Shown in pieces: positions 30,198-33,599 of a DNA stretch of 64,000 bases. A model generated the notes under the pieces. That model saw only the letters and a program-made list of their open reading frames with translations, was not told the DNA's origin and did not search any database. Both the position numbers and the translations under genes were made by a program. The stretch is from Octopus vulgaris (Eukaryota). The stretch lies in the NCBI GenBank assembly GCA_951406725.2, contig OX597837.1, forward strand, positions 3,596,001 through 3,660,000, in the 5' to 3' direction. Positions within the stretch are counted from its first letter, which is position 1; each line of letters starts with the position of its first letter.

Positions 30198-30574
30198 GGC
30201 GAGCTGGCAGAATCGTTAGCAAGCCAGGCGAAATGCTTGGCGGTATTTCGTCTGCCGCTACGTTCTGAGTTCAAATTCCGCCGAGGTCGACTTTGCCTTT
30301 CATCCATTCGGGGTCGATAAATTAAGTACCAGTTACGCACTGGGGTCGGATGTAATTGACTTAATCCGTTTGTCTGTCCTTGTTTGTCCTCTCTATGTTT
30401 AGCCTTTTGTGGGTAATAAAGAAATAGGTATTTCGTCTGCCAGTATCTGAGTTCAAATTCCGCCGATGTCGACTTAGCCTTTCATCCTTTCGGGGGTCGA
30501 TAAATTAAGTACCAGTTTGTCTGGCCTTGTTTGTCCCCTCTGTGTTTAGCCCCTTGTGGGCAATAAAGAAATAA
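30198..30574 (+). mobile_element. SINE family B, tandem dimer
   Basis: Two B cores; GACAGCGAAA flanks both sides (likely TSD). Confidence 0.88.
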
Positions 30575-31594
30575 GACAGCGAAAGATATTCAAATAGGAG
30601 ACTACAGAAATATAACCGGTTGCTTCAGCCATAAGCGTGAAATGGAGGGAGAAAGATAACAAGGAAAAACGGATGGCTACGGGTCACGTGTCAGTAGCAG
30701 GAAGGAGAAAAGTAGAAGGGAGAGAGAGAGAGAGAGACAGACAGACAGAGGGCAGAGAGAGAGGAAGAGACAGCAAGAGAAAAAAGGAGAAAGGAATTGA
30801 GATGAAGAGGGATAGTAAAAGACATCACACGAATATATAAGAAAACACTAAAAAAAAAAAAACCCATATAGGCGCAGGAGTGGCTGTGTGGTAAGTAGCT
30901 TGCTAACGGTTGCTTCTGCGCATGTGCGAGCCAGTGTTGTGTTTGGCACTGAAGCGGTGAAGACGTGCTATTGAAGCTGTCTTGAATTGAAAACTTTGGA
31001 AGCCCCATGTAAGGTAAGATTCTGTTTTCTGGGTCCAGTGGGAGTTTTTGCTGAGAATTGTTTTTTACAGGCAGGAAGTCCTACTGGATTCAGAATTCTG
31101 ATTCTGCCGACATGTGGCAAATATATTTTTCTCGCTGAGAAAAGTTTTGGGGGCGTATCTGTCTTCGATAAATTGAGTAAATAATTTTCTCACGTAATTG
31201 TGAGAATTGTATTGTGCTGTGAAGAACTTTTATGAATTGTGAAAACCACTACTTCGCAAGAAAATTATAAAAATAAGCCACTATTGGATTACCTTTCGGA
31301 CCCATTTTTGTGGAGGTTGTGTTGCAGTTGCGGCGTTTCAGGTTCAACCCAGGCCGGGAGTACCGCAAGGCCAGAATATTTTTGCTGTGTTTTTTCTGTT
31401 TATTAACTTTCTTTTGAACTTCATTTAACCCTCCCTTTTGTTTTTTTTCTTTATTGTGACTTTCCGTTGATTTCTTCCCTTCTGTTGTGCTTTCTCCTTT
31501 TTGTTTTTTCAAAAATCTATCAAATTTTATTTGGACTTTTGAACTTTTTTCTTCCTGCTTTTTGAGTTTAATTTGAACATATTTAAAAAAAAAC

Positions 31595-32838
31595 ATGGCA
31601 ATGAAAAATAACAAAATTTTGGAGTGGGAAATCATACCACCTAAAAAGTGGTTAAAAGACCGTGAAGATAGGACGGTGGTGTTGAGAACCTACTCCAAGG
31701 CACTAGACACCATCGCCCTATTCGAAAAGACGGCAATTGAAAAGGAGTTGGAAGAGTATTTGCCAACAATTAAATTCATTTCCAGGGGTGTCAAATATGC
31801 AACAGTGTGGTTGCTATTTGACACCCCTGAAGAGGCTTGCAAATTTGCTAGCAAACCCCTGGAGGGTAAGGAAATCTTATTCCTACCCACGTACAAAAAA
31901 AAGAAATTGATGAAAGCTTGGATCTGCGGATTGCCACCCGACATAGAACCCGAGTGGATAGAGGAGACTATCCGCCGGGGTCTGGGTGACAGCGAAACTA
32001 AGCTCCTCAATGTAAAAGTTCTTCCTGCGGCTGCTTGGGTTGGGTCAAAAGCAATTTTGACCCTGTGGACACAATCAGCCAATCTGGTTCTTCCAGATTT
32101 TTTGAAAATGGCCGGGTGCAGGTACCCGGTGATGCTTGAGGGTCGCCCCCTAAGTGTCATCGGTGCTTGGAGTCCGGCCACATAAAGAAGAACTGTCCTC
32201 GGGAACAAAATAGGATCCCGGAACAGTTAAGTAAAACCCCTCTAGAAGAGGGAACGATAACGGCCGAGAAAGCAGAGGACTCCTCAAACAGAGGCCGAAA
32301 GAGGAAGGTGAGCAACAATGGGTGCTCACCGAAGGATAATAGGGATGAGGAGAGGAAGGCGAATCTTCCAGCCACGGAGGAGACGCACCCTCCCTCAGTT
32401 GAAAAGGGGAAAAAAAAGAAAAAGAGGAAGAAAAACGGGACATTACCGGCTGTCAGTGTAGCACCGGAATGTCCCAGAACTACGTCGGTTGGGGTTGTGC
32501 CACCGACAAGAGAAGGAATACCGTTGGCGAGAACTGTGCCGCCAACGAAAGAACTGAACGTATTGGTCCTCTTCTATAGAGGAGGAGAAATTGAAAAAGT
32601 GATGGAAGAGCACTACAAGGGAGCACCTTTAGCCTTCACACAGGACCCCGAATGGCCTCCGCAGGTAGCTATGGAGGCCGTGGCGTTCGACGTGACGCGT
32701 GGGCTAAAGGAGCTCAATGAAGATTATAACTTGGTCCCGGGCGACGCGAACTCGGAACTTGATTACGTTCTGAGGGAGGCGTGGTTGATGGTGGAGGGCG
32801 CGGGCACAAGCTATTTCGAGGACGATATGTATTATTAG
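31595..32838 (+). pseudogene. L1/Tx1-type ORF1 nucleic-acid-binding protein (RRM-like region plus CCHC knuckle), about 414 aa with one frameshift
   Basis: ORFs 31595-32185 and 32167-32838 join if one C is added to the C5 run at 32146-32150. This gives LPDFLKMAGCRYPVMLEGRPPKCHRCLESGHIKKNCP (CX2CX4HX4C), followed by basic stretches RGRKRK and KKKKKRKK. Confidence 0.8.
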
Positions 32839-32960
32839 TAATGGACTTAAGTCCAAAAATTGAAAAATTGTAAGAGGATTAATACCTCGTTTTGTATTAA
32901 TAATGGACTGCTAAGTCCAAAAATTGGAAAAATTGTAAGAGGTTTAATACCTCGTTTTGT
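32833..32960 (+). repeat. Tandem duplication of about 63 bp at the start of the 3' UTR
   Basis: TAATGGACT..TAAGTCCAAAAATTG.AAAATTGTAAGAGG.TTAATACCTCGTTTTGT occurs twice. Confidence 0.9.
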
Positions 32961-33599
32961 GTTTATCCTTAAAAAGAACAATGTTTTAGAGAAGCGAAAG
33001 TCGGCGGGCGCTTTTTGTCTTCTCCCATCCTTATCATCCTTCTTTCATTATCATTCACCTCATTAATGTCCTCGTCCAGCCCGCAAAGCTAACTTAATCT
33101 GTGTACTGCCTTTATGGCAAATGTTTTGAAATAAAGTAGCTTGCTAACCAACTACATGGTTCCGGGTTCAGTCCCACTGCGTGGCATCTTGGGCAAGTGT
33201 CTTCTGCTATAGCCCCGGGCCGACCAAAGCCTTGTGAGTGGATTTGGTAGACGGAAACTGAAAGAAGCCTGTCGTATATATGTATATATATATATGTGTA
33301 TGTGTGTGTGTGTTTGTGTGTCTGTGTTTGTCCCCCTAGCATTGCTTAACAACCGATGCTGGTGTGTTTACGTCCCCGTGACTTAGCGGTTCTCAAAAGA
33401 GACCGATAGAATAAGTACTGGGCTTACAAAGAATAAGTCCCGGGGTCGATTTGCTCGACTAAACACGGTGCTCCAGCATGGCCGCAGTCAAATGACTGAA
33501 ACAAGTAAAAGAGTAAAAAAAACCCAATTCTCCGGAACGTTCCTGTAATTAATAAGCTAAAAAACATAATAAATGCAAAAACAACTGGAGAACAGATGT

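Follow-up and report, generated by a model that had tools for sequence, protein, structure and literature searches.

The window analysed here is a 64,000-nucleotide stretch of the Octopus vulgaris genome, in which a 2,226-bp insert lies between exact 15-bp direct repeats (30893-30907 and 33134-33148), as had been predicted from the sequence. The insert, read on the forward strand like all features given below, interrupts a SINE whose two halves rejoin into a unit of ~410 bp with many further copies within the window. The host SINE has its own 12-bp target duplication (left copy 30855-30866, right copy 33515-33526) and comprises the 5' part of its head with a degenerate A box (30870-30892), the left copy of the 15-bp target, in which the last six positions are mostly element-type letters across the family, and, beyond the insert, the right, host-derived copy of the target followed by the remaining SINE with a degenerate B box, body, and tail (33149-33514).

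The element begins with a leader of type A (30908-31248), one of three unrelated, swapped 5' ends of ~340 bp (A, B, and C), and continues with a 5' UTR part common to the family (31249-31594), the two making up the long 5' UTR that was expected ahead of the ATG at 31595. The first part of ORF1 (31595-32145) covers two predicted RRM folds, as judged from the intact copy L015, and the second (32151-32838, with the stop codon at 32836-32838) covers the CCHC knuckle, a basic, low-confidence linker, and an acidic C-terminal region; between them lies a C run (32146-32150), one base shorter than in intact copies, which is the sole frame break of the window copy. The 3' UTR starts with a short tandem duplication (32833-32966; ~65-bp unit, 90% alike) and also contains a motif complementary to the target (33083-33095), imperfect in the window's subfamily, and a 4-bp hairpin (33107-33119) common to the ORF1-only families and to the autonomous partner described below. 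The last bases of the element are an AATAAA (33130-33135) that overlaps the target, with no poly(A), and neither an endonuclease (EN) nor a reverse transcriptase (RT) was found in the window element, both in agreement with the original prediction.

Early in the leader, a splice-donor-like AGGTAAG (31012-31018) was observed, with similar motifs in leaders B and C and in the partner, as was a pyrimidine tract ending in AG (31560-31567) before the ATG; a 5' UTR intron or a U1 site is a possible explanation of these motifs. Separately, two partial copies of a second SINE family occupy 30204-30580, and the 3' terminal sequence of this family is that of an autonomous, non-targeting L1-type family, with which it likely forms a SINE-LINE pair.

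Reading frame, predicted folds, and lineage of ORF1

The single ORF of ~414 aa that had been proposed exists at other loci, with an unbroken 414-aa ORF in 9 of 80 aligned copies (9 of the 89 copies described below were skipped in this frame alignment as chimeric or partial), but not in the window copy, where ORF1 (31595 to 32838) is split into overlapping frames of 196 aa from the ATG and 232 aa because the C run lacks one base that intact copies have. The same C-run loss was shared by 24/80 aligned copies. Moreover, 1-bp losses in the longest base runs, which cover 9% of the ORF, were the commonest ORF1 breaks (75 of 193 frameshifts), and short-read contigs contained the longer C run in three of four runs, but most contigs stop there. 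An assembly error is the more likely, albeit unproven, cause of the break, and the window copy appears to be an ordinary, possibly mis-assembled member of its family. Programmed frameshifting at the C run was also considered and was rejected in view of the commonness of intact copies and the frequency of such 1-bp losses. Two runs presumed to be RNA cover the element in the form of contigs only, which carries no weight as to expression.

The RRM-like region noted originally could be refined to two predicted RRM folds at about residues 14-103 and 100-185. The AlphaFold model of the intact copy (16-sequence alignment) had a mean pLDDT of 62, with residues 11-200 mostly at 72-95; Foldseek matched the model to tandem-RRM proteins (E 4e-5, with low TM-scores) and VIA-align to single RRMs (best Z 9.2, rmsd 2.6, 80 residues). 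The anticipated CX2CX4HX4C knuckle is present, with a Pfam zf-CCHC match (E 0.007) below the cut-off, and of the anticipated basic tail a basic stretch was retained, namely the low-confidence linker past the knuckle, whereas the C-terminal region proved acidic. ORF1 is accordingly predicted to be an RNA-binding protein consisting of two RRMs followed by a CCHC knuckle.

ORF1 was 25-34% identical to the ORF1s of the genome's autonomous EN-RT elements, and one such element harbored an ORF2 with endonuclease, RT, and zf-RVT domains, for which human L1 ORF2p was the best PDB match (E 4e-66). The closest named protein was an uncharacterised protein of Octopus sinensis (63% identity). In a tree of 28 ORF1 stretches, which was midpoint-rooted and carries a long-branch warning, the window lineage comprised a clade of eight (support 100/100), which a stem of ~1.8 changes per site separated from every autonomous ORF1 sampled, that of the partner included. 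Of these eight, four lead directly to a target junction, a nested L1 interrupts another, and the remaining three have too little flank. The dN/dS analysis suggested at the outset yielded low ratios, namely 0.10-0.54 within the clade (25 of 28 pairs, three being saturated) and 0.10-0.21 for pairs with dS > 0.6, indicating purifying selection on ORF1. ORF1 has thus stayed functional for long without an RT of its own, and it is an old, separate lineage under purifying selection and not a recent deletion product. In addition, copies of a second ORF1-only lineage carry either the targeting 3' end or that of a non-targeting family, which suggests partner switching.

Dispersed copies at one base of a SINE head

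A DNA search of the 2.8-Gb genome identified at least 39 copies with 94-100% identity (39 scored of 3,324 candidates), and a 24-mer from the 3' end had 220 exact genome matches compared with 0 for the control; the copies were dispersed along all large contigs. After the first 30 of the 220 matches by position, the same SINE sequence followed in 30/30. Pooling 30 DNA-search loci with 60 regions from the first 69 places of the 3'-end matches, and merging duplicates, gave 89 distinct copies (of the 69 places, five were already among the copies and four short ones were left out, all four also at the target), and 89/89 ended on the same base of the SINE head. The SINE, originally seen as a chance landing place, is therefore the fixed target of the family. 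Upstream, the SINE head directly adjoined 78 of the copies, another unit adjoined 10, and neither adjoined one. The 78 head-flanked copies span 1,922-2,616 bp, leaving no room for ORF2, and together with the 220 matches they bear out the expectation of many ORF2-less copies with the same ends; the objection that the other copies might carry ORF2, making the window copy a one-off deletion, failed on the same spans. The further objection that the sequence might be a processed pseudogene failed as well, as the genome protein search gave continuous, unspliced repeat copies; no exon-split parent was found among the best 101 of 17,020 protein-search candidates, all of which were repeat copies.

The genome contained 75,549 exact empty target sites, so that a random insertion would hit one with a chance of ~1.3e-5; for the wider group, 638 exact occupied junctions were counted. 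Within the SINE head, the A-box region ends at the target site, where the retrieved tRNA genes differ in letters. Uninterrupted, the head aligned to tRNA-Lys(TTT)-type genes of the genome with z 5-6 over shuffles (25 distinct tRNAs retrieved), and an Rfam search gave no tRNA match to it. The three leaders are mutually unrelated and are joined to one shared body, with 15 copies of type A, 42 of type B, and 20 of type C, 2 unassigned, and 11 without a head among 90. A chimeric subfamily (L050, L055, L056, and L062) combines a different ORF1 first half with the family's last ~610 bp, and an internally deleted copy of ~100 bp (L036, the same place as L253), consisting of the leader start and the 3' end only, also lies at the target.

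Host variants at target positions 10-15 made the origin of the left target copy readable in 37 full-length copies, of which 35 were element-type: the left copy keeps element letters in 17/18 copies with leader A or B, and type C has its own variant in 18/19. The partner's left copies showed the same variants. The predicted target site duplication is a real 15-bp repeat in the window, but in many members of the family the left copy does not reproduce the host sequence. Ten leaderless copies (relatives and partner), scored by eye, comprised six with a 14-16-bp host-type duplication and four with 0-7 bp. These junctions suggest a true stagger near 15 nt that would be overwritten in full-length events by a target-led RNA, and target sequence probably forms the start of the element RNA, a situation known from some R2 elements.

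Units also stack head-to-tail, with another unit directly upstream in 10/89 copies, far above the ~1% occupancy derived from the exact-pattern site counts, and ORF1-only and partner-lineage units stack on one another (L164 and L336). On contig C7 (~13.45-13.50 Mb), an array in which varied ORF1-only units follow a single SINE head, with nested autonomous L1s, extends over >45 kb, and its right end lies beyond the fetched sequence (L094, L095, L204, L205, L244, and L246). Other ORF1-only units with non-targeting L1 3' ends were observed in tandem with autonomous copies (L096 5760-9900; L206; L244).

The probable autonomous partner and the proposed route of insertion

An ORF2 C-terminus was detected upstream of 5/30 sampled target junctions, and the likely partner corresponding to it is a 5.46-kb element with ORFs of 467 and 1,133 aa located between the same SINE head and target. 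Its 3' end had 107 exact matches, the first 30 of which were all at the target (30/30); the 30 best partner copies, a set overlapping with these, were likewise all at the target and mostly ~99% identical. Among 20 fetched copies, 16 spanned the unit end to end at ~99% identity and 8 had an intact ORF2 (1,133 aa), and this near-identity indicates that the partner family is young. The partner ORF2 was 58-67% identical to ORF2s with PF03372, PF00078, and PF13966, and the partner's homologues carry the same domains, which identifies it as a two-ORF element of the L1/Tx1 group with an APE endonuclease, RT, and C-terminal zinc motif. The RT tree with the partner contained octopus and unnamed sequences only, as the homologue search gave no named Tx1 reference.

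The proposed search for an autonomous partner sharing the 3' UTR thus succeeded as to a partner at the same site, but partner and ORF1-only element share only the last ~37 bp (78% identity, E 0.04), made up of the 4-bp hairpin plus an AT-rich stretch that terminates in AATAAA; the pairing of the two therefore rests on their common site and hairpin. Across 21 distinct ends, 95% of 84 hairpin cells were paired, two-sided changes occurred at 2/4 pairs, and the score exceeded all 500 shuffles, a result that concerns 4 base pairs only and shuffles that related sequences can beat. Among 30 of the 196 other junctions, L132 had an ORF2, and its 3' end clustered with partner-like ends. The idea that RT is borrowed in trans, already part of the original prediction, gains support from this autonomous element at the same target with the same 3' hairpin.

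Other partner candidates were rejected. A zf-RVT-based search (30 loci and 40 regions) gave several autonomous families, but with varied flanks; a chimera of the ORF1-only leader with one autonomous family was a single copy; and an ORF2 ahead of a targeting 3' end in the large array was a nested insertion. Concerning the partner lineage itself, the partner leader in L277 (2734-2780) contains another target-like stretch in degenerate form, which may be left over from an older junction, and tandem full-length autonomous elements with a ~5.4-kb period, including three partner 3' ends, were seen in L098 and on contig C9 (2.66-2.68 Mb).

Considering these observations, it is very probable that the ORF1-only 2.2-kb family, inserted at one base of the SINE head, is copied by the endonuclease and RT of the 5.46-kb partner. 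The RNA would start with a short SINE target segment carried over from a previous insertion and would be coated by the element's own ORF1, while the partner ORF2 would bind the 3' hairpin region, nick the bottom strand at the 23/24 boundary of the SINE, and reverse-transcribe from the AATAAA end, with a top-strand nick following ~15 nt downstream. In full-length events the cDNA end may pair with the overhang, usually imposing the element letters, whereas truncated cDNAs would result in either a genuine duplication of host sequence or a short one. Every insertion would then rebuild the target on its left, allowing later units to stack head-to-tail.

The same partner might instead act with a loosely specific endonuclease while the RNA steers the site through its SINE-derived leader, read-through 3' tail, and complementary motif, which would base-pair with the target or among themselves, a reading that we regard as unlikely. 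A target-complementary run of at least 7 bases occurred in 18/34 targeting 3'-end clusters compared with 7% of shuffles and 0/24 non-targeting L1 ends, and the motif is present both in the partner (at -81) and in ORF1-only units (at -43 to -50), which are otherwise unlike in sequence, but it is imperfect in the window's young subfamily and missing from several clusters. Leader type was also associated with host variant (C on non-A hosts in 13/19, A/B in 16/54; Fisher p 0.006), an association that may reflect age alone. RNA-target pairing has been proposed for R2 5' ends (PMC3774820) and for SART1 and R1 3' ends (PMC7265360), whereas the endonuclease is seen as the main determinant of Tx1-type targeting (PMC4494074). 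Furthermore, leaderless truncated copies reach the same base, indicating that the leader is unneeded for the first nick. The target-complementary motif and the read-through tail can fold into a closing stem. On a speculative note, for which we would claim a rather low probability, partner and ORF1-only passengers could form a self-guiding system in which the 5' target sequence and the complementary 3' UTR motif, and not the endonuclease alone, set and track the single-base target in the SINE promoter, with old ORF1-only lineages joining or leaving by swapping 3' ends.

Copying by the targeting partner also has to be weighed against a supply of RT by a non-targeting family of the L1/Tx1 group, with the ORF1 protein directing the particle to SINE heads, which seems improbable. 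The best autonomous match of ORF1 is indeed non-targeting (32-34% identity vs 28-30% for the partner), and one non-targeting L1-type copy ends 2 nt from the target junction, but the 3' flanks of those families are varied and their 3' ends different. Moreover, the partner lands at this site despite its very different ORF1, and the second ORF1-only lineage exists with and without the targeting 3' end, so that the site follows the 3' end and not ORF1.

There is even less reason to believe that SINE and insert travel as one composite whose common site was inherited from one old insertion. Element and host distances did correlate, though weakly (Mantel r 0.18, p 0.009), and some copies are without an upstream head (L039, L052, L053, and L197). 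Against this, several SINE subfamilies serve as hosts, with about double the divergence of the elements (mean divergence 8.1% for host SINE bodies and 3.5% for elements, n = 86), variants in the head's first 15 bases agree, by eye, with the host subfamily right of the insert, and truncated copies stand behind an intact head with their own duplication. These three observations argue that the composite usually does not move as a unit. The presence of unrelated ORF1 lineages and an autonomous element at the same site, as well as the stacking of units, also speaks against this explanation, which the truncated copies with host-type duplications largely refute. Finally, an origin as a host gene's processed pseudogene or by a single internal deletion has a negligible probability, since hundreds of dispersed, unspliced copies have identical ends and ORF1 is homologous to LINE ORF1s, even though Octopus sinensis has a relative annotated as an uncharacterised protein.

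Significance and comparison with known systems

ORF1-only LINEs and transposon-targeting Tx1 elements are each already known; what matters here is the invariable SINE site, together with the partner and a left junction that is probably carried by the RNA. A SINE-targeting pair of LINE and passenger, or a cephalopod ORF1-only family, was not found in the literature searched, and Repbase and the supplements of PMC13282606 may hold them; in its available part, this octopus repeat annotation reports 13 recently active L1-Tx1 families with no targets given (PMC13282606).

The elements form a three-tier set of parasites, with a SINE as landing pad, a LINE specific for one of its bases, and passengers with a long-selected ORF1 of their own. 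Each insertion parts the A and B boxes of the SINE by kilobases and would silence that copy. Since the hosts are variable, the junctions record which bases are derived from RNA and which from DNA, something hard to see in R2 with its uniform target, and second-strand joining thereby becomes testable from genomes. In addition, a young, intact APE LINE with single-base specificity and tens of thousands of dispensable targets might serve as an insertion tool in octopus genetics.

HAL1 is by definition an internal deletion of an identifiable autonomous parent, with which it shares its 5' and 3' regions; mammalian L1 has a poly(A) tail and inserts without a specific target, and the mammalian ORF1 is of the coiled-coil type. 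The octopus family resembles HAL1 in encoding ORF1 only, in many copies, with an ORF1 that is related, at the identities given above, to those of autonomous elements of the L1 group, and to this extent the original comparison with HAL1 stands. It does not stand as regards origin, in that the octopus element is no deletion copy of the present partner, as shown by the 37 bp shared and the long ORF1 branch, and its parent may conceivably be unsampled or extinct. The octopus family also differs in lacking poly(A), in using one fixed site, and in having an RRM-RRM-CCHC type of ORF1, so that the name HAL1 fits only loosely. The HAL1 (half-L1) elements of mammals are likewise described as non-autonomous, ORF1-only elements that arose more than once (PMC5753468).

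Among target-specific Tx1 LINEs, Tx1 inserts in Tx1D, Tx1-Mar in Mariner-N4_AMi with SINEU passengers, and Keno in U2, target specificity being defined there as >20% of flanks in one repeat (PMC4494074); the corresponding values were 89/89 for the ORF1-only copies and 30/30 for the partner. The octopus partner resembles these elements as an APE-type LINE that targets another repeat and has non-autonomous passengers at the same target, a likeness judged by domains and targeting, with a partner tree that is without named Tx1, Keno, and Kibi/Koshi references. It differs in that the target is a SINE head, hit with single-base precision, and in that its passengers code for an ORF1 of their own.

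In Drosophila, HeT-A and further telomeric Jockey elements with ORF1 only depend on the ORF2 of another family (PMC13534243), and the octopus system is similar in its long-lived ORF1-only lineages, head-to-tail arrays, and foreign ORF2. The two differ in clade and in target, the latter being in octopus a dispersed SINE sequence rebuilt per insertion, where HeT-A uses chromosome ends. Those R2 elements that keep 28S sequence at the 5' end of their RNA have uniform 5' junctions and propagate altered target duplications, and the earwig R2 carries a fixed duplication of downstream target with substitutions (PMC3774820); similarly, the left junctions of full-length octopus copies are propagated, slightly altered target. 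Unlike the octopus element, R2 possesses a ribozyme, a single ORF, and an endonuclease of the restriction-like type, and an Rfam search found no ribozyme in the octopus element. In summary, as far as its sequence tells, the octopus element would work like a HAL1- or HeT-A-type passenger of a Tx1-type targeted LINE.
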